A DNA stretch of 64,000 nt from an uncultured Gammaproteobacteria bacterium (GCA_964425075.1 CAYRKM010000001.1:705793-769792), one strand, 5' to 3'. Shown: positions 1 through 54,836, counted from the stretch's first letter. Program-made: numbers and translations. Notes: generated by a model from the sequence alone, not told the origin.

Positions 1-279
1 ATTAAGAAAGCTGGATATGTTGTGATGTATGAGCCAACAGCAATTTTATGGCACAAGAATGCAGTTTCCTCAGGCGGTTCGGGTTCAAAGCTCCAGGACT
101 ATTATATTTCAAGAAATCGAATGTTGTTGGGGATGAGGTATGCTCCGCTAAGAACAAAAGCTGCATTAATTAGAGAAAGCTTAATGATTTTAAAATCCGG
201 AAGAGAATGGCAAAAGTTGGGAATTAGAGATTTTTACCTAAGAAAGTTTGGGAAAGGCACTTTTTTCAGTAAACAGTGA
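1..279 (+). CDS. GT2 glycosyltransferase, C-terminal fragment; the 5' end lies outside the window
   Basis: Frame 1 is open from base 1. The tail IKKAGYVVMYEPTAILWHK... aligns with the C-termini of the GT2 paralogs at 8689..9621 (AQKSGYKISFNSKSVVEHL) and 62347..63261 (ARKAGYETMYLPYATIKHR). Confidence 0.6.
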   Translation: MKKAGYVVMYEPTAILWHKNAVSSGGSGSKLQDYYISRNRMLLGMRYAPLRTKAALIRESLMILKSGREWQKLGIRDFYLRKFGKGTFFSKQ

Positions 280-1931
280 AATTATTTAGAAAACATTTAG
301 GACTCCTTATAATATTGGTAGTAGGTTTTCTGCCTCTGCTTGCTTTGTTTCATGTTGGGCTTCCAATAACTCATGATGGAGTTGATCACGTTGCGCGTAT
401 AGCAAATTTTTATATCTCTCTTCAGGAAGGGGTAGTAATTCCTAGGTGGGGAGCACTTTTAAATTGGGGATATGGACATCCGGTGATGATGTTTCTATAT
501 CCATTTTCTTCTTATGCCTCCTCATTTTTTCATCTTCTCGGAGCATCTTTTACTGATTCCGTAAAGATTGTCTTTGGAATAGGATTTATTGCAAGCGGGA
601 TATCAATGTATCTTTGGGCAAGAAATGCATTTAATGAATATGCTGGAATTGCAGCTGGTGTTCTTTATATGTATGCGCCTTATAGATTTGTTGATCTTTA
701 TGTAAGAGGTGCAATTGGAGAGCATACTGCATTTATTTTTCCTCCTTTGGTTCTATATTTCTTATTTAAGTTTTTTAAAAAGAATAATACTAAAAGTAGT
801 TATTGGTATTTTCTAGGAATAGTTGCTTCGATGGCTTCCTTGCTCCTTTCTCATAACGCAATTAGTATTATGTTCTTGCCGGTTATCGTTTTTTATACTT
901 TATATCTTTATTTCAATACAAATGATAAGAAAAAATTAATATATGCAGTAGGCGGGTTATTATATGGTTTTCTTCTTTCATCGTTCTTTCTTTTGCCAGC
1001 ATTTCTAGAAGGAAAATATACATTAAGAGACATAGTTACAGGAAATGAATATGCTACTCGTTTTGTGGATCCTGCCAGATTTATTTGGGGAAAATGGAAC
1101 TATGGCATAACGGGTGAATTTACAGTTCAACTAGGATTATTGCAATGGCTAGGAATTTTTGCATTCCCAGTTGTTTTATGGAACGAAATCAAACATAAGA
1201 GTAAACACCTGATTTTACTTAATGGTATATTTGTGTTTTTTTTAATTTCGCTATTTATTCAGACGCAATATTCTCAATTTCTTTACGAGATAATAACAAC
1301 TCTTAAGAAATTTCAGTTCCCATGGAGGTTTTTAAGTTTGACTGTATTTACAACAGCAATTATTACTGCCTCATTATTTTTATTAATAAAAAAGGAAAAA
1401 TATAAAAAAATAATTCTTGGAATTCTTGTCGTAACTTCAGTTTTAATAAATTGGGAATACATGCAGGCTAAAAATTATATCCTACATCCTGACAGTTTTT
1501 ATACGAGTATTTATAAAAGCACTACAGACACAGGTGAGAGTAGTCCGATTTGGTCGGTTAGATTTATGGAAAAAGTTCCCAAGGATAAAGTAGAGGTTGT
1601 GGATGGGGAGGCAACAATAACTGAAACAAGACGTTCTACAACAAGGCATTCGTACAGAATCATTTCAAAGGGTGATGCTCGTATTAAAGACAATACCGTA
1701 TATTTCCCCGGGTGGAAAGTATACGTAGATGGAAATCCGATTTTAATCGAATTTCAGGATCCTTCACAAAGAGGCCTTATCACATTTATGATCCCCACAG
1801 GAGAGCACGAGGTTGAAGTTGTCTTTGAGGATACAAAACTTAGAGTATTTGCAAACATAATTTCTATCCTGTCAGCAATTGGTTTAATTGTGTTGGGAAT
1901 ATATTTTCTAAAAAAATATGAAGAAAAATAA
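276..1931 (+). CDS. Polytopic membrane protein, GT-C-like (YfhO/PTPS-related-like superfamily); paralog of 24720..26396
   Basis: 551 aa. An N-terminal TM helix is followed by an HDGVDH acidic/His motif and then many TM segments. The C-terminus (FPGWKVYVDGNPI... plus a terminal TM anchor) resembles YfhO C-termini. ATGA overlap with the downstream gene. Confidence 0.55.
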   Translation: MKLFRKHLGLLIILVVGFLPLLALFHVGLPITHDGVDHVARIANFYISLQEGVVIPRWGALLNWGYGHPVMMFLYPFSSYASSFFHLLGASFTDSVKIVFGIGFIASGISMYLWARNAFNEYAGIAAGVLYMYAPYRFVDLYVRGAIGEHTAFIFPPLVLYFLFKFFKKNNTKSSYWYFLGIVASMASLLLSHNAISIMFLPVIVFYTLYLYFNTNDKKKLIYAVGGLLYGFLLSSFFLLPAFLEGKYTLRDIVTGNEYATRFVDPARFIWGKWNYGITGEFTVQLGLLQWLGIFAFPVVLWNEIKHKSKHLILLNGIFVFFLISLFIQTQYSQFLYEIITTLKKFQFPWRFLSLTVFTTAIITASLFLLIKKEKYKKIILGILVVTSVLINWEYMQAKNYILHPDSFYTSIYKSTTDTGESSPIWSVRFMEKVPKDKVEVVDGEATITETRRSTTRHSYRIISKGDARIKDNTVYFPGWKVYVDGNPILIEFQDPSQRGLITFMIPTGEHEVEVVFEDTKLRVFANIISILSAIGLIVLGIYFLKKYEEK

Positions 1932-4266
1932 ATTTTTTATTAAATTGTTGCCGCTTCTATTTTTAATAATGGTTTGGTTTGGATTTAGTTACCCATTTTT
2001 TATTCAGAGTAAAGTTCCATTTGCATCAAATTACCAGGTAAATTTTTTCTCTCCATGGAGTGGTTACCCTGAATTAGCGGGTCCCGTAAAGAACGATGCA
2101 CAGCCAGACGTTATTACGCAAATTTACCCATGGAGGTTGTTTGCAGTTGAAGAGCTTAAGCAAGGAAGAATTCCATTATGGAATCCATATAGTTTTTCAG
2201 GGACACCACACCTTGCAAACTATCAATCCGCAGCGCTATCTCCACTAAATATCCTTTTCTTTGTGTTCTCAGATATTGATGCCTGGAGCATACTTGTGTT
2301 ACTTCAGCCGTTGCTTGCGGGGATTGGTATTTATCTATTCGCAAGATCTTTAAAAATTTCAGAAATTGGTAGTCTTTTGTCATCCATATCCTTTATGTTT
2401 TGCGGGTTTATTACAACCTGGATGGGATATGCAACTCTTGGTTATGCTATTCTTTTTCTTCCATATTCCTTATATGCAATTCAAAAATATCTATCACAAA
2501 AATCCATTTTTTATCTTATTCTTCTCTCATTAAGCATTGCATTTTCATTTCTTAGTGGACATTTTCAAATCAGCATGTATCTTCTTTTGTGCATTATTGC
2601 ATTTAGTATATATAAATTATTTCCAGTCTATAATAACAAGAATTCTATTTTTGTTAGCCTCTTTATTTTTGTTGGAATTTTACTAGCAATGCCTCAAATT
2701 TTGCCGACCATCGAATTCTATACTTTGTCAGTTCGTAGCGCCTCATTCCAACAAACTGAAATAATTCCTTGGAGTTATCTTCCGACGTTTTTTGCGCCAG
2801 ATTTCTATGGGAATCCTGTAACGCGAAATGGTTGGTTTGGACATTATGCTGAGTGGAATGGATATATTGGAGTTGCTGGGTTAGCTTTTGCGCTTCTTGC
2901 TTTATTCAACTATAAAAAAAGAGACGTACTTTTTTTCGCTGGTGTTTCACTTTTAGCGCTACTTCTATCTTTCAACACCCCTCTGATACCATTATTAATG
3001 GCTTTAAAAATTCCTGTTCTCTCGACTAGTGCAGCAGGTAGAATTATTGTTATTTTGAGTTTTTCTTTGTCAGTACTTGCCGGGTTTGGCTTCGATACTC
3101 TACAGGACTTTAGAGAGAAAAAAAGAAAAAAAATAATCTGGTGGATATCCACACTTACACTCATGTTTATTTGCATAGTTGCATATGCAATGTTTGGTCT
3201 ACCAGATTCTCAAAAGACACCTATTGCGTTAAGTAATCTTAAGTTGCCAATTGGAATTATTGTTATTGTTTTTGCCTACATAGTAGGTATTCTATTAATA
3301 AAATCAAAGAAAATATTAGTATTTTTATCAATTGTGCTTTTAGTAATTGCCTCCTTTGATATGTTACGGTTTGCAAAAAAATGGCAGGCATTTGATCCGA
3401 AAGAACTAGTGTTTAAGGACGTTGCTACAACTGCATTTTATAAAAGTCAAAACACAGAGAAAAGATTCTTAACCGATTCAACAGCGGAAAACAGTGTTTA
3501 TTACAAACTACAAACGTTAGGTGGATATGATCCATTGTATCCTGAGGCTTATGGTGAATTTATTAAGTATGTTAATAGCGAAGAATTAATAAAGCCAGAC
3601 AGGTCCGTTGTGTCTTTTCCTAAAGATGGCATGCATACACCAGAGGCTATAAATTTTTTGGGGGTTTCATATATCATCGAAAAGATTTCTGATGAGGGGC
3701 GCCCTTGGGGTTTTCCATTTAAAAAATATCCATTGGATCAATTCAGTAAAATTTATGATGATAAAGTTTTTAGAGTTTATGAAAATAAAAAAGCATTTCC
3801 GCGTACTTTTCTTGCTTACGACACAATTACATCTGGAGATAAAAAAGAACAACTAATAAATATGTTCTCACAAGATCTTTCCAAAATTGCAGTAACAGGA
3901 GGCTCAATTCAAGGACTTAACAAAAACGGTAGGGGGAATGCAAAAATTGTAGAGTATTTACCTAATAAGATTACAATCGAAACAAATTCCTCAGGAAGCG
4001 GGTTGTTGGTTCTAACGGATAATTACTACCCAGGATGGAAAGCTAATGTAAACAATGTTAGGCAAAAAATATATAAAATAGACTATAATTTTAGAGGAGT
4101 TGTGGTACCAGAGGGTAAAAGCAGAGTGGTAATGGAGTATTTACCTCAATCTTTTTTTGTAGGTATATATCTTAGCTTAATTGGGGTGCTTATAATTGCA
4201 ACAAGTTTTGTTTTGCAAAGAATAAGAAGATTTGAATTTTTAATCAAAAAAACAAACATAAAATGA
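1918..4266 (+). CDS. YfhO-family membrane glycosyltransferase (GT-C)
   Basis: 782 aa. Has the LWNPYSFSGTPHLANYQSA motif near the N-terminus and a C-terminal YYPGWKANVNN...YNFRGVVVPEGK module followed by a terminal TM helix, both typical of YfhO. Confidence 0.7.
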   Translation: MKKNKFFIKLLPLLFLIMVWFGFSYPFFIQSKVPFASNYQVNFFSPWSGYPELAGPVKNDAQPDVITQIYPWRLFAVEELKQGRIPLWNPYSFSGTPHLANYQSAALSPLNILFFVFSDIDAWSILVLLQPLLAGIGIYLFARSLKISEIGSLLSSISFMFCGFITTWMGYATLGYAILFLPYSLYAIQKYLSQKSIFYLILLSLSIAFSFLSGHFQISMYLLLCIIAFSIYKLFPVYNNKNSIFVSLFIFVGILLAMPQILPTIEFYTLSVRSASFQQTEIIPWSYLPTFFAPDFYGNPVTRNGWFGHYAEWNGYIGVAGLAFALLALFNYKKRDVLFFAGVSLLALLLSFNTPLIPLLMALKIPVLSTSAAGRIIVILSFSLSVLAGFGFDTLQDFREKKRKKIIWWISTLTLMFICIVAYAMFGLPDSQKTPIALSNLKLPIGIIVIVFAYIVGILLIKSKKILVFLSIVLLVIASFDMLRFAKKWQAFDPKELVFKDVATTAFYKSQNTEKRFLTDSTAENSVYYKLQTLGGYDPLYPEAYGEFIKYVNSEELIKPDRSVVSFPKDGMHTPEAINFLGVSYIIEKISDEGRPWGFPFKKYPLDQFSKIYDDKVFRVYENKKAFPRTFLAYDTITSGDKKEQLINMFSQDLSKIAVTGGSIQGLNKNGRGNAKIVEYLPNKITIETNSSGSGLLVLTDNYYPGWKANVNNVRQKIYKIDYNFRGVVVPEGKSRVVMEYLPQSFFVGIYLSLIGVLIIATSFVLQRIRRFEFLIKKTNIK

Positions 4267-5018
4267 AGGACATAACCATAATAATCCTCGCCTTAAATGA
4301 GGCAGATGTAATCAAAGATGCAATTCTCTCAGTTAAGGATATTGCAAAGGAAATTTTAGTGATAAATGCTAATTCCACAGACAACACCAAAGAAATTGCT
4401 GAAAAAAATGGCGCTTTAGTAATTTCTCGTCAATTTAAAGATTTTTCAGATCAAAGAAATTTTGCCATTCTACATGCGAAAACACCATGGATAATGTATT
4501 TGGATGCAGATGAAAGATTGACAGATTCTTTTAAGAAAGAACTTAAAGAAAAAATTGAGTCATATGATGAAAAAGGGTCCGTTGGAGGATTTTATGTTAA
4601 CAGAAAAACATTTTATTTCGGTAAAGACTGGAATTTAACGGATAGGGTGCAAAGAGTTTTTTATAAAGAAAAATTCATTGAATGGTATGGAGTAGTGCAT
4701 GAAACACCAAAAATTCACGGTGAATTCAGTGAAATTAATAGTCCAATTCTGCATTTTACTCATAGGAATTTGTCTCAAATGGTAGGAAAAACAAATGAGT
4801 GGTCTGAGTATGAAGCAAGATTACGCCTTAAGTCAAACCACCCCTCTATGACAGCCTGGAGATTTATTAGGGTGATGGGAACGGAATTTATAAATTCATA
4901 CATTAAAAATGGCGGATATAAGAACGGCACTTATGGACTAATTGAAGCAATTTATCAGGCTTTCTCGATGTTTATAACTTATGCAAAGTTGTGGGAGTTG
5001 CAGCAAAAAAAACACTAA
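4263..5018 (+). CDS. GT2 family glycosyltransferase (GT-A fold)
   Basis: 251 aa. N-terminal IIILALNEADVI... and a DADE motif (YLDADERL). Paralog of 19526..20302. Start overlaps the YfhO stop (ATGA). Confidence 0.7.
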   Translation: MKDITIIILALNEADVIKDAILSVKDIAKEILVINANSTDNTKEIAEKNGALVISRQFKDFSDQRNFAILHAKTPWIMYLDADERLTDSFKKELKEKIESYDEKGSVGGFYVNRKTFYFGKDWNLTDRVQRVFYKEKFIEWYGVVHETPKIHGEFSEINSPILHFTHRNLSQMVGKTNEWSEYEARLRLKSNHPSMTAWRFIRVMGTEFINSYIKNGGYKNGTYGLIEAIYQAFSMFITYAKLWELQQKKH

Positions 5019-5272
5019 CTCTTTTTAAACCAAGAACGCACCTCAACAATTGTAAGTCTTTTTTTGCTGAATCTTATTAAGTAAATTAACTCAACAATTC
5101 CTAAATCATTTAGTGGAATAAGTACAAAAAGTACTAAAAACCAATTGCGTTGTTTTTGATTAGAAGCTTTCCATAATGCGACGCCTTTCCAAAAAAGCTG
5201 CCAGACACTTGCTATAAAGACAAGAGCCAAAAGTCCCATGTTATTTTGAATATTAGCGAGTTGGTTATCCAT
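5015..5272 (-). CDS. DUF5652-like small membrane protein
   Basis: 85 aa. Two hydrophobic helices with a WKGVALWKASNQKQRNWFLVLFVLIPLNDLGIVELIYL pattern, recalled as characteristic of DUF5652 proteins common in CPR genomes. Confidence 0.5.
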   Translation of the reverse strand: MDNQLANIQNNMGLLALVFIASVWQLFWKGVALWKASNQKQRNWFLVLFVLIPLNDLGIVELIYLIRFSKKRLTIVEVRSWFKKS

Positions 5273-5358
5273 TTTCCTAACTGTAACATAGCTTCACTTG
5301 ATATTCAATAACTGCTACAATAACCTTAAGGTTTTGGTTTTTTTAGAATTTAAACAAA

Positions 5359-6423
5359 ATGAAAATAGGAATTTATTCTCCATATCTTGACACGATGACT
5401 GGGGGAGAAAAGTATATATTTTCAATTGCCTCATGTCTCTCAAAAAATCATTCAGTAGATATTTTTTGGAATGATAAAGAAATAATTGAAAAGGCAACAC
5501 GAAAATTTAATTTAAATCTTGAGGGGGTAAGGATTGTTCCTAACGTTTTTTCTGAGCAAGTAAACACTTTAAAAAGATTAAAAGGAACATTTGCTTATGA
5601 CAGAATAATTGTTCTTTCAGATGGCAGCATACCGTTAGTTGCAAGCAAACAACTTATACTTCATTTTCAATTTCCAGTAGAGTGGGTGAATGCTAAGTCA
5701 CCATTTATTAAATTTAAAATGAGTAGGGTTAGTAAGGTAATTTGCAATTCTTATTACACAAAAAAATATATTGATAAGAAATTTAATATACAAAGCAATA
5801 TTCTTTTTCCTCCTTCAGACGTTAATACTGGAGATATACCTGAAAAAAAGAATCTGATTCTAACAGTTGGAAGATTCAATCCATTATCAGATGGAACAGA
5901 CTTTAAAAAGTTAACAGTAATGGTTGATGCTTTTAAAGACTTTCAGAAAAAAAGATTAAAAGGTTGGAGATTTGCAATAGTAACCAACGTATTGCCGGAG
6001 AATGATAAGGAGTTCGAAGAATTTAAAAGTAAAATTGGAAGTCAATACATCGAGATACATAAAAATGTCCCATTTGATGACATAGCAAAATTGTATAAAG
6101 AAGCAAAGATTTATTGGCACGCTGCAGGATTTGGAGTTGATATAGAAAAGAGGCCAGAATGGTTGGAGCATTTTGGTATGGCAACAGTTGAGGCGATGTC
6201 ATATGGAGCAGTGCCGGTTGTTATCAATGCGGGTGGTCAGAGGGAGATTGTGAGTAATGGGAAAAATGGTTTTTTATGGAATACAACTGAAGAGTTGGTT
6301 AACTATACACACAAAATTGCAACCGAACCAAAATTATATGAGGAATTATCTGTGAGCGCTAATGAATCTTCAAAACAATTTAGTAAAGGAAGGTTTTGCG
6401 AGGAGCTTAATCAGGTAATATGA
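5359..6423 (+). CDS. GT4 family glycosyltransferase (GT-B fold)
   Basis: 354 aa. C-terminal-domain motif EHFGMATVEAMSYGAVPVVINAGGQREIV matches the GT4 E-x7-E region. Confidence 0.7.
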   Translation: MKIGIYSPYLDTMTGGEKYIFSIASCLSKNHSVDIFWNDKEIIEKATRKFNLNLEGVRIVPNVFSEQVNTLKRLKGTFAYDRIIVLSDGSIPLVASKQLILHFQFPVEWVNAKSPFIKFKMSRVSKVICNSYYTKKYIDKKFNIQSNILFPPSDVNTGDIPEKKNLILTVGRFNPLSDGTDFKKLTVMVDAFKDFQKKRLKGWRFAIVTNVLPENDKEFEEFKSKIGSQYIEIHKNVPFDDIAKLYKEAKIYWHAAGFGVDIEKRPEWLEHFGMATVEAMSYGAVPVVINAGGQREIVSNGKNGFLWNTTEELVNYTHKIATEPKLYEELSVSANESSKQFSKGRFCEELNQVI

Positions 6424-8687
6424 TACAAAAAATATTTAAGTTCTACCTTCATATTAAAACATTTCTTTTTCCGCTTTTTTTGTTAATCCTTGTAGTTATT
6501 TTTTATTATCCAACATTTCTCCAAAACAAATTGCCAATTCCATCGGATACTATAGTTGGTTTGTATCACCCATACAGAGACTTATATGACAGAGAATATC
6601 CTCGAGGAATTCCATATAAAAACTTTTTAATCACAGATCCAGTTCGTCAAACTTTTGTATGGAAAGAATTAGCAACTAGTTCATTCAAAAAAATGGAATT
6701 ACCACTTTGGAATCCATACGAAATGGCAGGAAAACCTTTGTTAGCTAATTTCCAGTCAGGAGTGTTTTATCCCTTAAATATTTTGTTTGTTGTTCTGCCT
6801 TTTACAACTGCATGGACAGTTTTTATTGTTTTACAAAGTGTTTTTATGGGTTTATTCATGTATTTGTATTTAAGAAATTTAAGGCTATCTTTTATATCAT
6901 CTTTTCTGGGATCAATAGCTCTCATATTTTCATCATTTTCAGTTGTATGGCTTGAATGGGGGAATATTATACATGCTTTTTTGTGGCTTCCATTAATACT
7001 ACTTGCAGTCGACAAATTATTTCAGAAAAAGGATAGGTATTTATTTTTTTGGGGCATATTATACGTTCTAGCTTTATTGTCTGCTTTTTTTGCAGGATAT
7101 CTTCAGACCTTTTTCTACATGTTTGTTATTTCAATATTTTATTTTGTTCTTCGCTTAGGAACAAAAAATGCTAGGCGCCTTTTACACTTCATATTACTTA
7201 ATACAATTTTTGTTCTATTGTCTTTCATACAATGGTATCCAACATATAAATTTATTCTTTTATCTGCTCGAAGTATTGACCAGAATTATTTAGTCACTGA
7301 AGGATGGTTTATTCCCTTTAAGCATCTAATACAATTTGTAGCACCAGATTTTTTTGGAAATCCTACAACCCTTAATTATTGGGGAATGTGGAATTATGCT
7401 GAGCTTGGGGGATATATAGGCATAGTTTCTCTGATGCTCGTTCCCTTCGCTTTTTTTATAAGAAGAAAACTTGTGATGTTCTTTACTGCAATTGTTTTCA
7501 GCGGATTATTATTTGCAACTGACAATTTAATTGCAAGGATTCCCTTTCAATTAGATATTCCACTTATTTCCTCCTCCCAACCTACTCGTCTGCTATCAAT
7601 TATTTTATTCTCACTTGCTGTTCTTGCGTCATTTGGCATGGAATATGTACTTAATATAAAAAGAAAATTTTCAACCTTATTCCCGTTAGCAATATGGTTA
7701 GGTGTTGTCTTGCTATTATGGTCTGCGGTTTTTCTAAAAAGCCCATTATTATTTGACGATCAGAACGTAATAGCTATAGCAAAAAGAAATTTATTTCTTC
7801 CAACAGCGCTTATTTTAAGTAGTTCCCTTTTATTTTTTGCCTTAGCCTTTTTTAAGAATAAAACCTTTAGAGCGGGAATTATAATTTTAATTTTTGTTTT
7901 TCTTTCTTTCGATCTTCTTCGCTATTCATGGAAATTTACACCCTTCACTAAGTCTGAATATCTTTTTCCACAAACTAAAATAATAAGTTTTTTACAAAAT
8001 GATAAAAGCATTTTTAGAGTCGCAGCTACTGACCAGCGTATTATGCCTCCTAATTTTCTTACACATTATAGAATTCAAACTTTAGAAGGATATGACCCAT
8101 TATATTTAAGATCTTATGCTGAATTCATAGCTTCAATGGAAAGAGGAAAGCCAGATATTAATCCTCCCTTTGGATTTAATAGAATAATTACACCACATAA
8201 TGTTAATTCTTCCTTGATGGACTCTCTAAACGTTAAATATATTCTTTCTTTTGATGAGCTAACGGATAGTAAATTTAAAAAAATAATGGTAGAGGGTAGG
8301 ACTAAACTTTATGAAAATACCCAATCATTCCCACGTGCATATTTTGTAAAAAGTATAGATACTGGTAGTAATAATCAAATTGAAATTGAGAAAATACATA
8401 AAGTAGATCTTGAAAATGTGGCTATATTATCGCAATTCAGTGCACCAGGAGAAAAAGACTACACCAAAGGAGAGGCGAGAATAAAGTTATATTCAGAGAA
8501 TAAAGTTGTTATAGAAACTCAAAATATTGGTACGGGATTTCTTGTGCTTGCAGATTCTTTCTATCCTTCCTGGAAAGCAACAATTGATGGGAGTAAAACA
8601 ACAATTTATCCTACAAACTATATATTCAGAGGAGTTGTTGTGCCGGCTGGCAAGCATACTGTAGAATTTAGTATTACGCTTTTCTAA
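6420..8687 (+). CDS. YfhO-family membrane glycosyltransferase (GT-C); paralog of 1918..4266
   Basis: 755 aa. LPLWNPYEMAGKPLLANFQSGVFYPLNILF motif and C-terminal LVLADSFYPSWKATIDG...YIFRGVVVPAGKH module. Confidence 0.7.
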   Translation: MIQKIFKFYLHIKTFLFPLFLLILVVIFYYPTFLQNKLPIPSDTIVGLYHPYRDLYDREYPRGIPYKNFLITDPVRQTFVWKELATSSFKKMELPLWNPYEMAGKPLLANFQSGVFYPLNILFVVLPFTTAWTVFIVLQSVFMGLFMYLYLRNLRLSFISSFLGSIALIFSSFSVVWLEWGNIIHAFLWLPLILLAVDKLFQKKDRYLFFWGILYVLALLSAFFAGYLQTFFYMFVISIFYFVLRLGTKNARRLLHFILLNTIFVLLSFIQWYPTYKFILLSARSIDQNYLVTEGWFIPFKHLIQFVAPDFFGNPTTLNYWGMWNYAELGGYIGIVSLMLVPFAFFIRRKLVMFFTAIVFSGLLFATDNLIARIPFQLDIPLISSSQPTRLLSIILFSLAVLASFGMEYVLNIKRKFSTLFPLAIWLGVVLLLWSAVFLKSPLLFDDQNVIAIAKRNLFLPTALILSSSLLFFALAFFKNKTFRAGIIILIFVFLSFDLLRYSWKFTPFTKSEYLFPQTKIISFLQNDKSIFRVAATDQRIMPPNFLTHYRIQTLEGYDPLYLRSYAEFIASMERGKPDINPPFGFNRIITPHNVNSSLMDSLNVKYILSFDELTDSKFKKIMVEGRTKLYENTQSFPRAYFVKSIDTGSNNQIEIEKIHKVDLENVAILSQFSAPGEKDYTKGEARIKLYSENKVVIETQNIGTGFLVLADSFYPSWKATIDGSKTTIYPTNYIFRGVVVPAGKHTVEFSITLF

Positions 8688-8688
8688 T

Positions 8689-9621
8689 ATGCGAGTAGAT
8701 ATTATTATTCCGAATTACAACGGATCACATTTGATACGCGAAAACCTTCCAAAAGTACTCAATACTCTTAAGCCTTATAAAGGCAAAGTGATAATTGTTG
8801 ATGATGGTTCAAAACCTGAAGATAGGGTATCTTTACGAGAGGTTGTAAAAGGGTATTCAGGTAGTGAGGTTGAGTTGATTGAACACACCGTAAATAAAGG
8901 TTTTTCATCAGCAGTTAACACTGGAGTTAGGGCCTCTACGGCTGATTATGTTGTTCTTTTAAATTCGGATGTAATTCCTAATAAGGATTTTCTAAAACCT
9001 CTTCTTGAAGAAATTGAGAAGGACCCCTTAATTTTTGGAATAGGTTGCATGGACGAGAGTATTGAGGGCGAAAAAACAACACTAAGAGGGAGAGGTCAAG
9101 CAAAATGGAGTAGGGGGATGCTTATACATGAAAGGGGAGACGTTAGTAGTAGTGATACATTTTGGATATCGGGGGGTAGCAGCATCTTCAGAAGAGAATT
9201 ATATATGAAGCTTGGTGGGATGGATGAGATATATAACCCTTTTTACTGGGAGGATATAGACCTTTCATATAGGGCCCAAAAATCTGGATATAAAATTTCT
9301 TTTAATAGTAAATCAGTTGTTGAACATCTTCACGAAAAAGGTGCGATAAAGAAAAACTTTCGTAAGAACAAAGTAACAACAATTGTCTATCGAAATCAAT
9401 TTACTTTTCATTGGAAAAATATTAGTGAGCAACGACTATTAATAAGTCACATCCTGTGTCTTCCATACCACGCGCTAGGTGCACTAAAAAGAGGTGATAG
9501 TGAATTTTTTAAAGGATTATTCCTTGCCCTATTAAGGCTTTCTGCTATAATAAAAAAGCGAAGTATTCAAAAGAAAAATTACAAACTTTTGGATTCGGAA
9601 ATTATTAAAAAATTTGAATGA
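8689..9621 (+). CDS. GT2 family glycosyltransferase
   Basis: 310 aa. N-terminal VDIIIPNYNG and VDDGS motifs; C-terminal region paralogous to 1..279 and 62347..63261. Confidence 0.7.
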   Translation: MRVDIIIPNYNGSHLIRENLPKVLNTLKPYKGKVIIVDDGSKPEDRVSLREVVKGYSGSEVELIEHTVNKGFSSAVNTGVRASTADYVVLLNSDVIPNKDFLKPLLEEIEKDPLIFGIGCMDESIEGEKTTLRGRGQAKWSRGMLIHERGDVSSSDTFWISGGSSIFRRELYMKLGGMDEIYNPFYWEDIDLSYRAQKSGYKISFNSKSVVEHLHEKGAIKKNFRKNKVTTIVYRNQFTFHWKNISEQRLLISHILCLPYHALGALKRGDSEFFKGLFLALLRLSAIIKKRSIQKKNYKLLDSEIIKKFE

Positions 9622-10349
9622 AAAATAGCTCGTCACCAACATTGTCAATTATAATTCCTGCATATAACGAAGAAAATACAATAGGTGAGGTGCTTGATAA
9701 TCTTAAGAAGCTCGATTTTCTTTCAGGTTCTAGAGAATTTATCGTCGTAGACGATGGATCAAAAGATAATACTGCAAAAATTATTAAAGAGAAGAGCAAA
9801 AAAATATCTGAGATTAATTTTATCCAACACGAAAAAAATAAGGGAAAGGGTGCTGCCGTAAGAACAGGTATCCAAGCTTCAAAAGGGAAAGTTCTTATAG
9901 TTCAAGATGCTGATTTGGAGTACAGTCCAAGTGACATTCCTCGTTTGATTGAACCTATTCTTAAAAACAAAACTAAGGTTGTTTATGGGACAAGACTTCG
10001 TCAAAAACCTGTATTTTTTGGAAAAGACAAGACTCCTTTATTGTTAAATTTCTTTGGAAATAAATTTTTAAGTCTTGTAACCTCAGCGCTCTACGGTTCT
10101 TCAATTACCGATATGGAAACTGGATATAAGGCATTCTTAAGAACAGTTATTGAAGATATGAAGTTAAAGTCTCGTTCTTTTGATTTTGAACCTGAAATTA
10201 CTGCAAAAATACTTAAAAAAGGGATAAAAATTTTGGAACTTGATATAAAAGTGAATCCAAGAGGGTACGATGAGGGAAAAAAGATTGATGTTAGAAAAGA
10301 TGGTGCTATCGCCCTTTGGACGCTTATTAAATATAGATTTATAAATTAA
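9618..10349 (+). CDS. GT2, polyprenyl-phosphate sugar synthase type (Ppm/DPM1/GtrB/ArnC-like)
   Basis: 243 aa. LSIIIPAYNEENTIGEVL...VVDDGSKDNT...VQDADLEY is the signature of Dpm1-like enzymes that load sugars onto polyprenyl phosphate. Confidence 0.7.
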   Translation: MKNSSSPTLSIIIPAYNEENTIGEVLDNLKKLDFLSGSREFIVVDDGSKDNTAKIIKEKSKKISEINFIQHEKNKGKGAAVRTGIQASKGKVLIVQDADLEYSPSDIPRLIEPILKNKTKVVYGTRLRQKPVFFGKDKTPLLLNFFGNKFLSLVTSALYGSSITDMETGYKAFLRTVIEDMKLKSRSFDFEPEITAKILKKGIKILELDIKVNPRGYDEGKKIDVRKDGAIALWTLIKYRFIN

Positions 10350-10352: not shown

Positions 10353-11855
10353 ATGTCGCGTCCTACTTCTTCATGGACAGTTGCCTTTATTAGAAATAAT
10401 TTACCGCTTATTGCTATTCTTTTTTTGGGAGCAATACTTCGTTTTTATAATTACCCCGACAGATGGGGAATTGCATATGACCAGGCTTGGTTTGCCACTA
10501 TTGCCCACTATGCATTAGATACTTATCAATTACCATTACTTGGACCTTTCGCCTCTGGTGGGCCTTTCCAAACTGGCGGTGAGTGGTTTTGGGTTTTAAT
10601 GCTAGGGATTGCCCCTTTCCCTTACGTAGTAAATGCCCCCTGGATTTTTTTAACGGTACTTTCAGTAGTCCAAATTTTTGTTAGCTATGTTTTGGGTGTT
10701 GTTTACAAAAATAAATCATTTGGGCTTCTTCTCGCATTTCTTTGTGCAATTTCCTCCACACTAGTTTTGCAGTCAACAAATCTTACGAACCAAATGCTTA
10801 TATCAATGATTTCAACTGTATTTCTCATATTCTCCATTTTATACTTAAGAATCCCAAAAATATCCACACTTTTTTATGCAAGTTTATGTGTTGGTTTAGC
10901 TTCGGCAATGCATTTTCAGGGGGTTATTCTTCTTCCCGCGCTTTTTTTATTAATTTTAGTTAGTAAGTCTTTTCAATTTAAAAGAATTGTTACAGTAATT
11001 TTGGGAGTTGTTGTGCCCTGGTTGCCGGTGCTATACGTTGATACGCAAAATAATTTTTTTAACACAATAAATATTCTTACATATTATAAAAATCCCCAGA
11101 GCCAAGCTTCATATGAAGTTTTAGGAAGAAGATGGCTAACATTTATTTTCGACTATATACCGACATCGTGGGGATATGTAGTGGGGGGGAATAGGTGGAT
11201 GGGGTATTTAGAGGTTACTCTTGTAAGTTTATTAGTTTTAAAAAAATTCATAAAAAGGAAGATTACTAAGGAGTTTCTTTTTGTAATTTCAACAATTGCA
11301 ACTCTAACTATAGTTCTTAGATATCTAAAAATTCCTCTTTACGAAAATTACATAAACTTCCTGCACCCATTTATATTTCTTGTGGTTGCATTAAGTGTCT
11401 TTTTTATATTTAGATTTAGCAAGATTTTAGGTATAGGATTTATTTGTCTTATTGCAATTTTCAGTTTTCAAAGGATTAATGAAAACGTCTCAATAAGTAC
11501 GAATACAACAGCAACTCAAAGCGCAGAGCTTGCAAAGATCCTAAAGGGAAAATATCCAGGCGAGAAATTTGCCATTTATGACTTTGGAGATTCTCAAGGT
11601 CATCGTTCTATGCCGCTTTCATATTACTTATTGGTTGATGGACTTGCAGATAGCTCTGGAAGAAAAATAGGTTTGGCAGCAGCAACTATTGGAGGACAAC
11701 TAGAATTTCAGTCACACAAATTAATATTTGGTGAGTTTGGCAAGAGTCAAATATTTGATTTATCCAGTTCATCAGAGGCAGAGCTCCTTCATTCTGGATG
11801 GAATGATAGGAGTCCTGAGCATGTTTATAATTCTGTTCAAAATTGGTATAAATAA
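10353..11855 (+). CDS. Polytopic membrane protein, GT-C-like; distant paralog of 15181, 16687 and 17969
   Basis: 500 aa, at least 10 predicted TM segments. A WGIAYDQAW acidic motif follows TM1 and is shared with the downstream paralogs. Confidence 0.5.
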   Translation: MSRPTSSWTVAFIRNNLPLIAILFLGAILRFYNYPDRWGIAYDQAWFATIAHYALDTYQLPLLGPFASGGPFQTGGEWFWVLMLGIAPFPYVVNAPWIFLTVLSVVQIFVSYVLGVVYKNKSFGLLLAFLCAISSTLVLQSTNLTNQMLISMISTVFLIFSILYLRIPKISTLFYASLCVGLASAMHFQGVILLPALFLLILVSKSFQFKRIVTVILGVVVPWLPVLYVDTQNNFFNTINILTYYKNPQSQASYEVLGRRWLTFIFDYIPTSWGYVVGGNRWMGYLEVTLVSLLVLKKFIKRKITKEFLFVISTIATLTIVLRYLKIPLYENYINFLHPFIFLVVALSVFFIFRFSKILGIGFICLIAIFSFQRINENVSISTNTTATQSAELAKILKGKYPGEKFAIYDFGDSQGHRSMPLSYYLLVDGLADSSGRKIGLAAATIGGQLEFQSHKLIFGEFGKSQIFDLSSSSEAELLHSGWNDRSPEHVYNSVQNWYK

Positions 11856-19525: not shown

Positions 19526-20302
19526 ATGAAGAAATTATCTGTGGTTCTAGCTACTTTTAATGAAGAGGAAAATTTGCCTAGGTGTCTTGATGCAGTTAAG
19601 GAATTGGCAGATGAGATAGTAATAGTCGATGGGACATCAAAAGACAAAACAGTAGAAATTGCACGAGGATATGGTGCAAAAGTTATTGTTACTTCAAATC
19701 CACCCAATTTTCACATTAACAAACAAAAAGCAATCGATAAAGCGAGTGGAGAGTGGATTTTACAATTAGATGCTGATGAAGTTGTATCCTCAGAGCTTGC
19801 AAAAGAGATTCAAAAATTAATTGCCCACAATACAGAAGAAAACGGATTTTGGATGCCAAGGAAAAATTATTTTTTGGGGCGCTACTTAATGAAGGGTGGT
19901 CAATATCCTGATTATACAGTGAGACTTTACAAAAATGGAAAAGGAAAGTTGCCACAAAAGGATGTTCACGAGCAGGCTACTATTGAAGGGAAAGTTGGGT
20001 ATCTCAAAGAGGCATTGCTTCATTATCCATACAAAAACTTTAATGTATATTGCAAAAAATGGATGAGATACAATAGGCTAATTGCGGCACAAACTGCAGA
20101 TCAGCTCAAGGGGAAAAATTTATTTTACAAAGTGTATATAGCAGTTGCCGATTTGGTTTTACGTCCATCTCACTGGATGTTAACTACCTACTTTCGCCAC
20201 AAAGGTTTTGTAGATGGATGGCAAGGATTTGTGTTTTCATTAATGTCTTCTCTTCGTTTTCCAGTTTCGTACATACTGTATTTAGCTGGAAAGTATGTTT
20301 AA
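19526..20302 (+). CDS. GT2 family glycosyltransferase; paralog of 4263..5018
   Basis: 258 aa. LSVVLATFNEEENL...IVDGTSKDKT...LQLDADEVV. Confidence 0.7.
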   Translation: MKKLSVVLATFNEEENLPRCLDAVKELADEIVIVDGTSKDKTVEIARGYGAKVIVTSNPPNFHINKQKAIDKASGEWILQLDADEVVSSELAKEIQKLIAHNTEENGFWMPRKNYFLGRYLMKGGQYPDYTVRLYKNGKGKLPQKDVHEQATIEGKVGYLKEALLHYPYKNFNVYCKKWMRYNRLIAAQTADQLKGKNLFYKVYIAVADLVLRPSHWMLTTYFRHKGFVDGWQGFVFSLMSSLRFPVSYILYLAGKYV

Positions 20303-26396: not shown

Positions 26397-27447
26397 TATA
26401 TCGCCAATTAGCACAAAATCGACTTCACAGCACAAAGTACGTGGTGTTGGAGCATATATCAATTTATTAAAAGAACATCTACCAGTCGAGGACAAAAAAA
26501 ATGAATATTTATTTATCGAAGACAAGAAAATTCCAAAGGACATAGACTTACTCCATTTTCCGTATTTTGACCCTTTTTTCTTAACTTTTCCCTTAATTAA
26601 AAAAAAGAAAACAGTCATAACGATTCACGATATTATTCCGCTTGCTCATGGGAAGGAGTTTCCTGCAGGAATTAAAGGGAATTTAAAATGGCAAATTAAT
26701 AAAAGAATTTTATTGTCTGCAGATGGGATTATTACTGATTCAAAGGCTTCTAGAAATGCTTTAAATAAGCTCTTAAATTATCCTAACGAGAAAACATACG
26801 TTGTTCCTCTTGGTGTTAGTAGTGACTTTAAAAAAATAAAGCTTTCTAATTTTGATATTAAGACAATCAAGGAAAAATATTCGCTGCCGGATCGTTTCCT
26901 GATGTATGTTGGCGATGTTACATGGAATAAAAATTTGCCAAGGCTTATTGAGGCCATTAATTTAATACATAACATTCCTCTTGTTATGGTAGGAAGAGCT
27001 ATAACAGAAAAAGAATTCGATAAGTCTAATTCTTGGAATAGAGATAGAAATTATTTGATTAAGAATACAGAGAATAAGTTATTTCACAAACTAGGATTTG
27101 TTCCTACAACTGACCTAATAATGCTTTATAACCTTGCTGATGCTTTGGTCATGCCTTCCCTTGATGAAGGGTTTGGGTTACCGGCATTGGAAGCGATGAG
27201 CTGTGGTTGCCCAGTGATTATATCTCATGAAGGAAGTCTTCCTGAGGTAGGGGGAGAGGCTGCATTATATGTAGATGCTTATTCTACAGAGAACATAAAA
27301 AAAACACTAGAAAAAGTTTGGACCGATTCAGAATTAAGAAAGAGATTATCAACTAAGTCGATTGAACAATCTAGAAAATTTTCTATTGAAAAAATGATAA
27401 GAGATACAGTAAGTGCTTACGAAATAATAAATGAAAAAGCACATTAA
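26365..27447 (+). CDS. GT4 family glycosyltransferase
   Basis: 360 aa. DEGFGLPALEAMSCGCPVIISHEGSLPEVGG matches the GT4 C-terminal domain. An alternative start at 26380 (MRIGIDI) is possible. Confidence 0.7.
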   Translation: MKEKNMRIGIDISPISTKSTSQHKVRGVGAYINLLKEHLPVEDKKNEYLFIEDKKIPKDIDLLHFPYFDPFFLTFPLIKKKKTVITIHDIIPLAHGKEFPAGIKGNLKWQINKRILLSADGIITDSKASRNALNKLLNYPNEKTYVVPLGVSSDFKKIKLSNFDIKTIKEKYSLPDRFLMYVGDVTWNKNLPRLIEAINLIHNIPLVMVGRAITEKEFDKSNSWNRDRNYLIKNTENKLFHKLGFVPTTDLIMLYNLADALVMPSLDEGFGLPALEAMSCGCPVIISHEGSLPEVGGEAALYVDAYSTENIKKTLEKVWTDSELRKRLSTKSIEQSRKFSIEKMIRDTVSAYEIINEKAH

Positions 27448-28699
27448 TAAAATTATTTCAAATCCTCTCATTTCGGGAAGCAGCATCATTTTTCTGGGAA
27501 CTTTTTTTGCGAATATTTTTAACTATGGATTTAGTCTAATTCTTGGTAGATTATTGCCAGTTTCAGAATATGGATTGGTTGTTTCTCTTGCATCAATAAT
27601 TGCGATATTTACACTTTTTCAAGCATCTTTTTCAAGTATTTTTGCAAAATTTACTGCTCAATATTATGCAAGCGGGGACAGCAAAAAACTAAAACTCTTG
27701 ATAAGTGGTGGGATGCAAGCTGTATTATTGTGTGGAGCAATTGTTTTCTGTCTTTTTTTAATAGGGATACCATTTCTTTCCTCATTTCTACATCTGAATA
27801 ATTTTTTTCTACTTTTAGTTATTGGCGTTTATATTTTTGTATCCTTTTTATACTCATTGCCATATGGTGTGTTGCAGGGAGAACTTCGATTCTTTTCTCT
27901 TTCAGGTTTAAATATTGCAAGCTCTGCTGTAAAAATAATTGTTGGAACTTTTCTAGTTTTATTGGGTTGGGGTGTTTTGGGAGCATTGGGAGGATATCTT
28001 TTCTCAATGATTGTGCCATTTATTATTGGTGTTGCTCTTATCTTTTCAAAAGTTGGATTTTCATGGGGAAAATCAAAACAGCTGGGAATATTCTTTTATG
28101 AATTTAGAAAATATAGTTTTTATTTTTTCCTTGCTTCTCTTGGAATAACCATTTTTAATACTTTGGACGTTGTTTTGGTGAGAAACATTTTTGATGAAGT
28201 AACATCTGGGCAATATGCTGCACTATCATTAATTGGAAAATCAATTTTCTATCTCACCTCTCCAATTTATTTTGTATTTTTTCCACTAATTTCAAAAAAG
28301 AATGAATTAAAAGAGAAACTTACCCCAACCCTTCTCCTTGCGTCCATTATTGTACTTGCAGTTTCAGGTAGTGCTTCTGTTTTCTATTTTCTTTTTCCGC
28401 ATTTAGTTGTTAACATCTTTTTTCCGGCAAAGGAATACGCAATGTTATCGCAATATGTAGGACTGTATTCAGTATTTATTACGGTGTTCTCATTGGCTTT
28501 TCTTTTAAATAATTTTTTCCTTTCTGTCGGGAAAACAGCAGTTTATAAAATAAATATTACATGTGGAGTTTTATTGGTAGGACTTATTTTTATGTTTAGT
28601 AAAAACCTTTATGATGTGATTTGGACCTTGTTAGTAATGTCTCTTGTGCTTTTTACTTCGCTTCTTATATACTACTTTTATTCTTATGCAAGGAATTAA
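27431..28699 (+). CDS. Wzx-like polysaccharide/oligosaccharide flippase (MOP superfamily)
   Basis: 422 aa, about 12 TM segments, with the helix-pair architecture typical of polysaccharide biosynthesis (Wzx) proteins. Confidence 0.5.
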   Translation: MKKHINKIISNPLISGSSIIFLGTFFANIFNYGFSLILGRLLPVSEYGLVVSLASIIAIFTLFQASFSSIFAKFTAQYYASGDSKKLKLLISGGMQAVLLCGAIVFCLFLIGIPFLSSFLHLNNFFLLLVIGVYIFVSFLYSLPYGVLQGELRFFSLSGLNIASSAVKIIVGTFLVLLGWGVLGALGGYLFSMIVPFIIGVALIFSKVGFSWGKSKQLGIFFYEFRKYSFYFFLASLGITIFNTLDVVLVRNIFDEVTSGQYAALSLIGKSIFYLTSPIYFVFFPLISKKNELKEKLTPTLLLASIIVLAVSGSASVFYFLFPHLVVNIFFPAKEYAMLSQYVGLYSVFITVFSLAFLLNNFFLSVGKTAVYKINITCGVLLVGLIFMFSKNLYDVIWTLLVMSLVLFTSLLIYYFYSYARN

Positions 28700-29462
28700 A
28701 TCCCTCTCTCTGATTATCCCAGCATATAAAGAGGAAAAAAACATATCAAAAAGTATTGTTGCTGTTGAGAACATTTTGAAAAAAATGGGAGTGAAATACG
28801 AACTAATTATAGTTGTTGATGGATTTGTTGATAATACATTTAAAAATGCCTCAAAGAAAATATCGAAAAAGGTTAAGGTTTTGGGATATAAAAAAAACAA
28901 GGGTAAAGGATATGCTATTCGGTATGGAATAATTAAGTCAAAGGGAGATGTTGTAGGATTTATTGACGCTGGCCTGGATATAGATCCCGCAGCAATACCA
29001 TTGCTTCTTGAGTATTTAAAAATAAATAGTGCTGATATTGTGTTGGGAAGCAAACTCCATCCTGATTCAATAATTAATTATCCACTTCCAAGAAAGCTGT
29101 TGTCATGGTGTTATCGAAAGTGTTCCCAAGTACTTTTTGGATTTGATATTAAAGACACGCAGGTTGGACTGAAATTATATAGAGGAGATGTTGCGAGAGA
29201 TATTTTTTCAAAGTTAGTCATCAATGGTTTTGCATTTGACATTGAGGTTTTGGCTTTAGCGCATGCATTGGGTTACAGGAAAATTATCGAGGCACCTATT
29301 AAGTTGAGATTTAATAATTTCAGCACAATTACCTCTTATAATTTTTGGCAAATATCCTTAGCAACACTCCTTGACACTTTATCCGTGTTTTACAGGCTAA
29401 AAATAGCAAAGAGCTATGGTAAAATTGAAAAAAATAAAGTTAGGAAAAAACAAAAAAAATGA
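28686..29462 (+). CDS. GT2, polyprenyl-phosphate sugar synthase type (Ppm/DPM1-like)
   Basis: LSLIIPAYKEEKNI...IVVDGFVDNT...GFIDAGLDIDP. The start was moved to ATG 28686, overlapping the upstream stop; the ORF track gives 28644. Confidence 0.65.
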   Translation: MQGIKSLSLIIPAYKEEKNISKSIVAVENILKKMGVKYELIIVVDGFVDNTFKNASKKISKKVKVLGYKKNKGKGYAIRYGIIKSKGDVVGFIDAGLDIDPAAIPLLLEYLKINSADIVLGSKLHPDSIINYPLPRKLLSWCYRKCSQVLFGFDIKDTQVGLKLYRGDVARDIFSKLVINGFAFDIEVLALAHALGYRKIIEAPIKLRFNNFSTITSYNFWQISLATLLDTLSVFYRLKIAKSYGKIEKNKVRKKQKK

Positions 29463-34008: not shown

Positions 34009-34089
34009 ATTGCAATTATATTAATCTTTTCCTGTAATAACAAGACATTTTACATATTTTAGAGTTTAAATATATTAGCAATTTACCTA

Positions 34090-34098: not shown

Positions 34099-34104
34099 TA
34101 CACA

Positions 34105-35115: not shown

Positions 35116-35116
35116 T

Positions 35117-54612: not shown

Positions 54613-54836
54613 AACCACAGGACTTAGTATTTATTGCAATAATTATAATATTATTTTTTCTAAAAAAACCAAGAGCGATGGTAGTAGCTGGTTTAGTTTG
54701 TCTTTTGCTTGCTATTCCATTGTTTGGCTTCTGGATATTTTTTACTGCACAAAGATTAACTTATTATGCAGCAGGTTTTTTTCTTGCCGCGAGTATTCTA
54801 TATTTGTGGTTTCTAAGGATAAAAAATACTAAATGA
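54609..54836 (+). CDS. Small 2-TM membrane protein
   Basis: 75 aa with two hydrophobic helices. ATGA-coupled to both neighbouring genes. Confidence 0.35.
   Translation: MKPQDLVFIAIIIILFFLKKPRAMVVAGLVCLLLAIPLFGFWIFFTAQRLTYYAAGFFLAASILYLWFLRIKNTK

Follow-up and report, generated by a model that had tools for sequence, protein, structure and literature searches.

We analysed 64,000 nucleotides of DNA deposited under the name of an uncultured Gammaproteobacteria bacterium (GCA_964425075.1, CAYRKM010000001.1:705793-769792; this whole stretch is called the window), concentrating on a run of glycosyltransferase genes at positions 1918 to 10349 that encodes two YfhO-family membrane proteins, here called YfhO1 and YfhO2. 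We conclude, at a probability of about 0.6, that this run is the central part of a cluster of ~20 kb and ~14 genes conserved throughout Candidatus Levybacteria (Microgenomates, within the candidate phyla radiation (CPR) or Patescibacteria), and that the cluster is best read as one for cell-envelope glycosylation, a CPR member of the multi-component transmembrane glycosylation systems. An initial annotation had described the same genes as repeated three-part modules, each pairing a YfhO glycosyltransferase of the GT-C fold (GT-C) with small family 2 glycosyltransferases (GT2s). Genes and proteins are referred to below by their first coordinate, as listed in Table 1.

Results

Gene order around YfhO1 and YfhO2 in Levybacteria

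One genome per GTDB species was scanned, and the best 80 of the 227 confirmed relatives' loci were analysed. Each of these species-level loci included flanks of up to 10 kb, and its open reading frames (ORFs) were mapped onto the window's proteins. Sixty-nine loci were informative for the adjacency of YfhO1 and its GT2 and for the slot of the small DUF5652 gene, 52 for the block downstream of YfhO1, and 59 relatives for a gene pair further upstream. The relatives of YfhO1 were annotated as Candidatus Levybacteria/Levyibacteriota or Patescibacteria. Many cluster-bearing records of metagenome-assembled genomes (L003-L014 and many others) are titled 'uncultured Gammaproteobacteria bacterium', and L011 is titled 'Candidatus Pacearchaeota archaeon'; these labels look wrong.

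YfhO1 adjoined a GT2 of the 4263 type in 66 of the 69 loci. Within the next seven genes 3' of YfhO1, both the family 4 glycosyltransferase (GT4) and YfhO2 were found in 50/52 loci, and YfhO2 was followed on its 3' side by an 8689-type GT2 in 49 and by a 9618-type, Dpm1-like GT2 in 45 of the 52; the strict order GT4, YfhO2, GT2, Dpm1-like GT2 was kept in 44. Further upstream, a Dpm1-like gene was followed directly by a Wzx-like gene in 58 of the 59 relatives. Protein identity across the ~70 species that have the cluster is 40-65%, and synteny of this degree at such divergence speaks for selection acting on the gene order, which goes far beyond chance and is unlikely to reflect recent common descent instead. 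The linkage of GT-C and GT2 genes is conserved across relatives, so that the missing phylogenetic coupling which the initial annotation had named as a ground for refutation was not seen.

The cluster begins with two PTPS-like GT-C genes, followed by a Dpm1-like GT2, a Wzx-type flippase, a SunS-like GT2 (299 aa) and a Glyco_tranf_2_3 GT2 (302 aa). The last of these is the gene that ends in the window's first 279 bases; because those bases encode the C-terminal end of a GT2 clipped by the window's edge, the unit reaches beyond the window. Its orthologues in relatives are full-length (302-309 aa), and the fragment is paralogous to the 8689 GT2 (28% identity over 205 aa, E 2e-15). The part beyond the edge was read not from this genome's own sequence but from the closest relative, L091 (YfhO1 73% identical), which has the same layout by precomputed Pfam labels. 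The YfhO1 section then comes in two arrangements, PTPS-like GT-C/YfhO1/SunS-like GT2 or SunS-like GT2/YfhO1; the window has the former, and orthologues of its 276-1931 protein (46-56% identical) lie directly 5' of YfhO1 in ~20 loci. The 3' part consists of DUF5652 (antisense), GT4, YfhO2, the 8689-type GT2, the 9618-type Dpm1-like GT2 and variable genes. Three GT2 classes therefore each occur twice in ~20 kb, once alongside two PTPS-like GT-Cs and once alongside the two YfhOs, which is a repeat, though on another level than the one initially proposed.

All the genes named in the initial annotation are present by Pfam, ORF and transmembrane (TM) predictions, including the antisense two-TM DUF5652 protein between the modules (PF18893); the GT4 gene between DUF5652 and YfhO2 had been overlooked. 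An ATGA start/stop overlap was confirmed between YfhO1 and the 4263 GT2, and others lie at 6420 (GT4/YfhO2, where the GT4 stop overlaps the YfhO2 start by 4 nt) and at 9618 (GT2/GT2). A promoter/terminator scan returned fewer sites than in shuffled sequence, with one promoter-like site at 5293-5321, 5' of the GT4 gene.

Gene content 3' of 10349 varies between relatives (M10353, PMT-like genes, methyltransferases, extra YfhO copies). This variation, together with the packing of the 64 kb window with sugar-modifying genes, would fit a hypervariable, horizontally shuffled surface-antigen island of the O-antigen kind, shaped by phage pressure, in which gene neighbourhoods are accidental and carry no functional pairing. 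Against such an island, the 1918-10349 core and the upstream part keep their order in ~45-66 of the 52-69 informative loci at 40-65% identity, and the GC content of the window is flat at ~33%, without a compositional break. We regard this explanation as highly improbable overall; it is refuted for the core and possible for the region beyond ~10.3 kb. Almost all genes of the window lie on the plus strand, and most have predicted glycosylation functions.

YfhO1 and YfhO2 as GT-C proteins

YfhO1 and YfhO2 share 32% identity over 745 aa (E 1e-110), which marks them as true, ancient paralogues by sequence; both match the YfhO model PF09586, whose gathering score is 28.5 bits. An AlphaFold2 (AF2) model of YfhO1 (predicted local distance difference test score (pLDDT) 83.7, predicted template modelling score 0.87) shows a membrane domain of many helices, followed by an extracytoplasmic C-terminal domain rich in beta structure and by one last TM helix. 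When this model was compared with the PDB by Foldseek, its 16 best matches (probability >=0.95) were all GT-C glycosyltransferases, namely AftD, STT3, ArnT, PglB, DPY19, Emb (EmbC) and PMT, in agreement with the earlier assignment of YfhO as a GT-C. An aspartate in the first extracytoplasmic loop (YfhO1 D64/YfhO2 D73) is >=96% conserved among 52 YfhO1/YfhO2 sequences, and ~65 further positions are conserved across both paralogue groups. By family membership and predicted fold, YfhO1 and YfhO2 are classed as GT-C enzymes, and the loop-1 aspartate is probably catalytic.

We also considered whether proteins of the window could be oligosaccharyltransferases of the STT3/PglB/AglB kind. This identity was rejected: a regular-expression search found the oligosaccharyltransferase motif WWDxG in none of the window's proteins, and the sole Pfam signal was a weak STT3 N-terminal match in the 276-1931 protein (PF02516, E 0.0017, below cutoff). 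The polytopic protein M10353 lies directly 3' of the Dpm1-like GT2 in the window and in 9 relatives. Its profile aligned with that of YfhO by hhalign (probability 32%, E 5e-4) across the region of the conserved loop-1 aspartate; as a GT-C it was not retained, the profile-profile signal being weak and matches in the PDB being absent.

Four classes of GT2

A bootstrapped neighbour-joining tree of the window's GT2s, their upstream paralogues and E. coli ArnC and GtrB divided the GT2s into four classes: a Dpm1-like clade that includes ArnC and GtrB (59% bootstrap), a SunS-like clade (4263, 19526 and the upstream 299-aa gene; 100%), an 8689-like clade (8689, 62257 and the upstream 302-aa gene; 90.5%), and a pair with C-terminal TM helices (34105 and 50332; 100%).

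The Dpm1-like class was also picked out by E. coli K-12 reference queries (ArnC, GtrB (YfdH), GtrA, ArnE, ArnF and ArnT) run by phmmer against all window proteins. ArnC and GtrB selected exactly 9618, 55989 and 28644/28686 (two alternative starts of one gene), with E values from 1e-17 to 6e-10. The ArnC match to 9618 had an E of 1e-17; for 28686, which is 35% identical to 9618 over 215 aa, the values were 5e-11 (ArnC) and 6e-10 (GtrB), and its ATG start at 28686 suits the family's N-terminus better than the TTG at 28644. The best PDB match of 9618 was the Pyrococcus dolichol-phosphate mannose synthase (DPMS) 5mlz, over residues 7-215, followed by ArnC and GtrB. Its NCBIfam matches, which lay far below the equivalog cutoffs, were AglJ (6e-37), a Dol-P-hexose transferase (9e-23), ArnC (4e-20) and PpgS (6e-20), at ~65-90% profile coverage. 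For 55989 the PDB matches were DPMS, GtrB and ArnC only, with most of its length aligned (5mlz, 1.9e-15, residues 4-215; ArnC, 4-219; GtrB, 5-172), and the NCBIfam matches were AglJ, PgfS and ArnC; its neighbours in a minus-strand unit are genes for a nucleotide-diphosphate (NDP)-sugar dehydrogenase and a short-chain dehydrogenase/reductase (SDR). On these comparisons 9618, 28686 and 55989 are assigned as Dpm1/ArnC/GtrB-like GT2s, and 9618 becomes a candidate polyprenyl-phosphate sugar synthase. The residues at the DxD position are non-canonical in 28686 (DAG) and 55989 (MAD), against DAD in 9618 and ArnC, so that these two proteins may have altered metal or donor binding or may be inactive.

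The 4263 GT2, which the CsbB/YfhO analogy of the initial annotation would make the lipid-phosphate-sugar (lipid-P-sugar) synthase of the first module, proved to be of another kind. Its PDB sequence matches were GmaR (2.8e-12) and ThuS and SunS (~1e-8), at 21-24% identity across the GT-A core and the helices that come after it. Its AF2 model (pLDDT 89.7) gave SunS/ThuS as top Foldseek matches, with DPMS, GtrB and ArnC absent from the top 50, and the phmmer E values against ArnC and GtrB were 0.08 and 0.9. Sequence and predicted fold thus both identify 4263 as SunS/ThuS/GmaR-like, not Dpm1-like. Because it has only 251 aa, against 335-430 aa in the SunS/ThuS PDB chains (~85-180 aa shorter), the extra region at their C-terminus is missing from it. 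We noticed no gene for a glycocin-like peptide in the window, where no systematic search for a peptide substrate gene was made.

The 8689 protein matched MftF, EpsD, PgaC and rhamnosyltransferase models of NCBIfam, again far below cutoffs, and its best PDB match was chondroitin synthase; it is a generic Glyco_tranf_2_3 GT-A enzyme, neither Dpm1-like nor processive. The three GT2s that the initial annotation had named as Dpm1- or Ppm-like (9618, 28686 and 55989) were thus upheld as such; 4263 and 8689 belong to other classes. The paralogous GT2s at 34105-35115 and 50332-51396 (36% identity over 316 aa), with two predicted C-terminal TM helices each, have the architecture of GtrB/CsbB but are generic GT-A proteins by sequence, not Dpm1-like.

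A processive synthase of the cellulose, chitin or poly-N-acetylglucosamine type was considered and rejected for these GT2s: the [QR]xxRW motif occurs in 0 of the window's nine GT2s and is present in the E. coli PgaC control, and 4263, 8689 and 9618 have no TM helices. The initial annotation had stated that processive GT2s would count against its proposal; with QxxRW absent from every GT2, that objection does not arise. TM helices were predicted by a hydropathy scan, which found none in 4263, 8689, 9618 and 55989 and one borderline segment in 28644/28686. In an alignment (A3), the CPR Dpm1-like proteins all end before the two C-terminal TM helices of ArnC and GtrB. By analogy with GacI, a separate membrane protein could possibly serve as the anchor of these GT2s.

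Flippase candidates and the DUF5652 protein

We considered DUF5652 as a possible partner specific to glycosylation and did not assign it that role. Its gene lies antisense in the same slot in 60 of the 69 loci, and in 7 loci there was no room for it between YfhO1 and the GT4 gene. A member of the family that is 44% identical (P0298) sits among unrelated genes. We found nothing on the function of DUF5652 in the literature searched.

Small membrane proteins at 45166 and 54609 had been put forward as GtrA-like flippases. At E<=5, the GtrA model PF04138 matched none of 45166, 54609, 21292 and DUF5652, and E. coli GtrA, ArnE and ArnF matched no protein of the window. Among 1.84 billion representatives, 13 belong to the 45166 family, in which P-Y and N..F motifs are conserved; a Pfam scan matched 0/13 of them to GtrA. 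Every sequence test that we ran came out negative, and we dropped both proteins as GtrA-like candidates. The 45166 protein has no known domain, and its gene lies between those of a giant membrane protein and a hexapeptide acyltransferase. The Wzx-type gene 27431-28699 has a 3' end that overlaps the start of the Dpm1-like gene 28686, and the same linkage is seen a second time in the conserved upstream block. Gene linkage suggests that Wzx-type proteins adjoining Dpm1-like GT2s are better flippase candidates than 45166 or 54609.

These results bear on the reading that started the analysis, in which two or more independent three-component systems each glycosylate teichoic acid, every YfhO having its own CsbB-like synthase (4263 for YfhO1; 8689 and/or 9618 for YfhO2) and a GtrA-like flippase. 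Each YfhO does have a GT2 directly 3', with overlapping or abutting stop and start and with conserved adjacency, and in B. subtilis csbB (BSU08600) and yfhO (BSU08610) have consecutive locus numbers, with GtcA as flippase (PMC8035078). However, 4263 resembles SunS/ThuS/GmaR, 8689 is a generic GT-A, the CsbB-type C-terminal TM helices are missing from 4263, 8689 and 9618, GtrA, ArnE and ArnF have no match in the window, and no teichoic-acid synthesis gene is present there, so that independent modules are improbable. A GT-C does stand beside some GT2 twice, and the pairing is repeated in that sense only, because 4263 is paralogous to 19526 (28% identity over 188 aa) and not to 8689 or 9618. Since 4263 is SunS-like and 8689 a generic GT-A, the two modules lack a lipid-P-sugar synthase each. 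Nor does one independent donor stream per GT-C fit the gene counts, with three Dpm1-like GT2s in the window and one just upstream in relatives (~4 donor synthases) to 16 or more GT-Cs. The teichoic-acid acceptor, for which Pfam annotation of the window gave no synthesis gene, is an analogy only.

Other genes of the window

The window holds ~16 GT-C-like polytopic proteins other than Wzx, ten of them with a match to a Pfam GT-C family; their genes start at 276, 1918, 6420, 10353, 11881, 13493, 15181, 16687, 17969, 21813, 22925, 24720, 30567, 41799, 47219 and 52621. It also holds nine GT2s, at least 6 GT4s and many sugar-nucleotide enzymes, and this glycosylation island of at least 60 kb makes up ~7% of an 835 kb contig. 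The GT4 at 5359-6423 has a weak C-terminal match to monoglucosyl-diacylglycerol synthase (4e-11). Genes at 32806-37749, with a nucleotidyltransferase, resemble the CDP-dideoxyhexose route; they include an RfbH-like pyridoxal-phosphate enzyme (339 bits, cutoff 423) and a CDP-glucose 4,6-dehydratase-like SDR (196 bits, cutoff 278). The 1126-aa protein at 41799-45179 has ~13 TM helices and matches no Pfam family; it is a distant paralogue of the 663-aa protein encoded at 52621-54612 (24% over 483 aa), and the two may form an undescribed GT-C-like family. A 181-aa ORF at 59990-60535 has the N-terminal GT4 domain only and is followed by a complete GT4 gene at 60617-61738; it could be a truncated or split GT4 paralogue.

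The block at 52621-58919 contains the 663-aa membrane protein, the 75-aa membrane ORF, a DegT-type aminotransferase, the Dpm1-like GT2, the NDP-sugar dehydrogenase and the SDR, and the best window matches of E. coli ArnA-C, ArnB and ArnC are located there. We considered this block as an Arn-like module for 4-amino-4-deoxy-L-arabinose (Ara4N) and did not adopt the assignment, as NCBIfam ranks Fcl/GalE/LegB, RfbH and UDP-ManNAc dehydrogenase models higher.

Table 1. Coordinates and properties of the genes and proteins discussed.
Feature	Position	Strand	Properties
C-terminal fragment of ~302-aa Glyco_tranf_2_3-type GT2	1..279	+	frame open from base 1; clipped by window edge
PTPS_related, GT-C-like polytopic membrane protein	276..1931	+	PF10131 1.2e-14; 8 predicted TM helices
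YfhO1, YfhO-family GT-C (predicted)	1918..4266	+	PF09586 3e-27, 95.8 bits
SunS/ThuS/GmaR-like GT2, soluble, 251 aa	4263..5018	+	PF00535; DAD motif at residue 81
DUF5652, 85 aa, two TM helices	5015..5272	-	PF18893 1.2e-17; convergent with upstream operon
GT4 (Glycos_transf_1, GT-B fold), cytoplasmic	5359..6423	+	PF00534 8.9e-21; first gene of second transcription unit
YfhO2, YfhO-family GT-C (predicted)	6420..8687	+	PF09586 1.2e-17, 64.1 bits
Glyco_tranf_2_3/rhamnosyltransferase-like GT2, soluble, 310 aa	8689..9621	+	PF00535 5e-27; PF13641 9e-16
Dpm1/PpgS/ArnC/GtrB-like GT2, 243 aa, without TM helices	9618..10349	+	PF00535 5e-36; canonical DAD motif
M10353, 500-aa polytopic membrane protein	10353..11855	+	8 TM helices; no Pfam match; possible GT-C
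SunS-like GT2, paralogue of 4263	19526..20302	+	NCBIfam TIGR04283 and SunS
Wzx/MOP-type flippase	27431..28699	+	PF01943 3e-17; PF13440 1e-10; 11 TM helices
Dpm1-like GT2 paralogue	28686..29462	+	DxD position = DAG; alternative TTG start 28644
132-aa membrane protein, very small family	45166..45564	+	translated ORF
75-aa membrane ORF	54609..54836	+	ORF and translation
Dpm1-like GT2 paralogue	55989..56714	-	DxD position = MAD

Discussion

Proposed pathway

In the cell-envelope glycosylation pathway that we favour, 9618 and its paralogues would use a nucleotide sugar to load polyprenyl phosphate with sugar on the cytoplasmic side of the membrane, as their homology suggests. The resulting lipid-P-sugar would be flipped across the membrane, most plausibly, given the gene linkage, by the Wzx/MOP-type flippases encoded beside the Dpm1-like GT2s. 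YfhO1, YfhO2 and other GT-C-like proteins would then pass the sugar to an extracytoplasmic acceptor, a step for which the fold, the loop-1 aspartate and the precedent of the family speak. The SunS-like GT2 4263, the GT4 5359 and the GT2 8689, all soluble and nucleotide-sugar-dependent by prediction, are most likely not lipid-P-sugar synthases. Their most likely place is in the cytoplasm, where they would prime or assemble either the acceptor or a lipid-linked glycan. For this reason we envisage one pathway with duplicated GT-Cs that share few donor synthases, and not a pair of three-part modules that work independently. Conceivable acceptors are a polysaccharide of the wall, a lipoglycan and a protein of the cell surface.

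Several observations weigh against this pathway. Pfam annotation of the window revealed neither teichoic-acid synthesis genes nor a priming phosphoglycosyltransferase. Within the second block, the 9618-type Dpm1-like GT2 is conserved least: L074, L076, L078 and L081, the four loci that diverge most, keep GT4, YfhO2 and the 8689-type GT2, and the Dpm1-like gene is not directly downstream. Because it is kept in these loci, the 8689-type GT2 is tied to YfhO2 more tightly than is the presumed donor synthase. The Dpm1-like clade has moderate bootstrap support only, 9618 has similar pairwise scores to E. coli PgaC and ArnC, and the DxD residues of 28686 and 55989 are non-canonical, as described above. 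A predicted synthase that lacks TM helices would need some means of attachment to work at the membrane. The four divergent loci also lack DUF5652, and in them YfhO1 overlaps the GT4 gene.

The flippase and the soluble GTs would also suit a Wzx-dependent lipid-linked oligosaccharide, in which the GT2s and the GT4 build on polyprenyl pyrophosphate, the YfhO- and PTPS-related GT-Cs act as polymerases, ligases or oligosaccharyltransferases on a surface protein (pilin or S-layer) or the wall, and the Dpm1-like enzymes add side decorations only. The conserved cluster does have a Wzx-type flippase, one GT4 and four GT2s that are not of the Dpm type; those relatives of 4263 that come closest among solved structures have peptides or proteins as substrates; PTPS_related 276-1931 has its weak STT3 match; and the best fold matches of YfhO1 include STT3 and PglB. 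Those fold matches are, however, no better than the ones to ArnT and AftD, WWDxG occurs in no window protein, the priming phosphoglycosyltransferase was not found in the window, and those YfhO proteins that have been characterised use C55-P-sugar as the donor of single sugars (PMC8035078). We consider this oligosaccharide pathway unlikely as the main function of the cluster, though it deserves more weight than independent modules; it may coexist with the cell-envelope pathway that we favour.

A more specific proposal is an extracytoplasmic glycan assembly line, in which few Dpm1/PpgS-type synthases without TM helices are combined with Wzx flipping and DUF5652 acts as the synthase's membrane partner, in the manner of GacJ or DPM2/DPM3. 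Such a line could be likened to mycobacterial lipomannan/lipoarabinomannan (LM/LAM) synthesis or to the lumenal ALG pathway. We put it forward as a speculation that is rather unlikely to hold in full; if it were true, it would give a first function to DUF5652, a CPR-specific two-helix protein.

Comparison with known systems

In a review of these systems, a GT-A produces C55-P-sugar and is joined by a flippase and a GT-C; one variant has a separate small membrane protein (GacI with GacJ), the Wzx-type flippase GacK and the GT-C GacL (PMC8035078). The CsbB/GtcA/YfhO systems of B. subtilis, S. aureus and Listeria (PMC8035078, PMC5836110) share with the Levybacteria cluster a YfhO-family GT-C genetically linked to a Dpm1/GtrB-like GT-A and, as far as can be inferred, the logic of a lipid-P-sugar that is made inside, flipped and transferred outside. 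In contrast to them, the Levybacteria GT-A lacks C-terminal TM helices, a GtrA/GtcA flippase was not found, there are two YfhO copies, set among a GT4 and GT2s of two further classes, the surroundings contain no teichoic-acid genes, and the organism is a CPR bacterium.

The closest analogy in logic appears to be streptococcal GacI/J/K/L. In S. pyogenes, GacI, GacJ, GacK and GacL make the N-acetylglucosamine (GlcNAc) side chain of the group A carbohydrate (bioRxiv 10.1101/180810, PMC8035078). In both cases the GT-A works with (Gac) or is clustered beside (Levybacteria) a small membrane protein, a Wzx-type flippase and a GT-C, in a larger cluster with cytoplasmic GT2/GT4 enzymes for a backbone polymer. 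The two differ in that GacL is PMT_2-type, not YfhO-type, and GacJ has three TM helices and belongs to another family than two-TM DUF5652, so that a GacJ role for DUF5652 would be an analogy only.

Actinobacteria combine Ppm1 with many GT-C mannosyltransferases, and PpgS/Rv3631 with Rv3779. The likeness lies in the short Dpm1-type proteins without TM helices (9618 matches NCBIfam PpgS, of 226 positions, over 4-202) and in few donor synthases that feed many GT-Cs, including PMT_2- and GT87-like ones, as predicted for the window. As the matches are all far below equivalog cutoffs, we claim no orthology to the actinobacterial PpgS system; genes of a mycobacterial-type acceptor pathway were not identified in the window. 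The Gtr/Arn modules of Enterobacteria are alike in that E. coli GtrB and ArnC select exactly the three Dpm1-like GT2s; they differ in that the window has no GtrA or ArnE/F homologue and that ArnT and GtrS gave no significant match. SunS/ThuS/GmaR, finally, are the best sequence and predicted-structure matches of the 4263 GT2, and the difference from SunS/ThuS is that its conserved partner is a GT-C membrane protein.

Significance

The type of system is already known from Firmicutes, Actinobacteria and Enterobacteria. New are the duplicated version of it that a CPR lineage has deeply conserved, and the assignments of the individual enzymes; we found nothing on YfhO or glycosylation clusters in CPR in the literature searched. 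For annotation, the cluster is a warning that a GT2 beside a YfhO gene is not necessarily a CsbB-type lipid-sugar synthase. It also offers candidate genes as targets: the predicted donor synthase 9618, the predicted transferases YfhO1 and YfhO2, and the putative flippase Wzx. CPR/Patescibacteria are tiny, mostly uncultured episymbionts whose surface presumably mediates attachment to the host. In these organisms a conserved ~14-gene cluster with duplicated YfhO, together with ~16 GT-C-like proteins in 64 kb, points to an elaborate surface glycan that is under selection.

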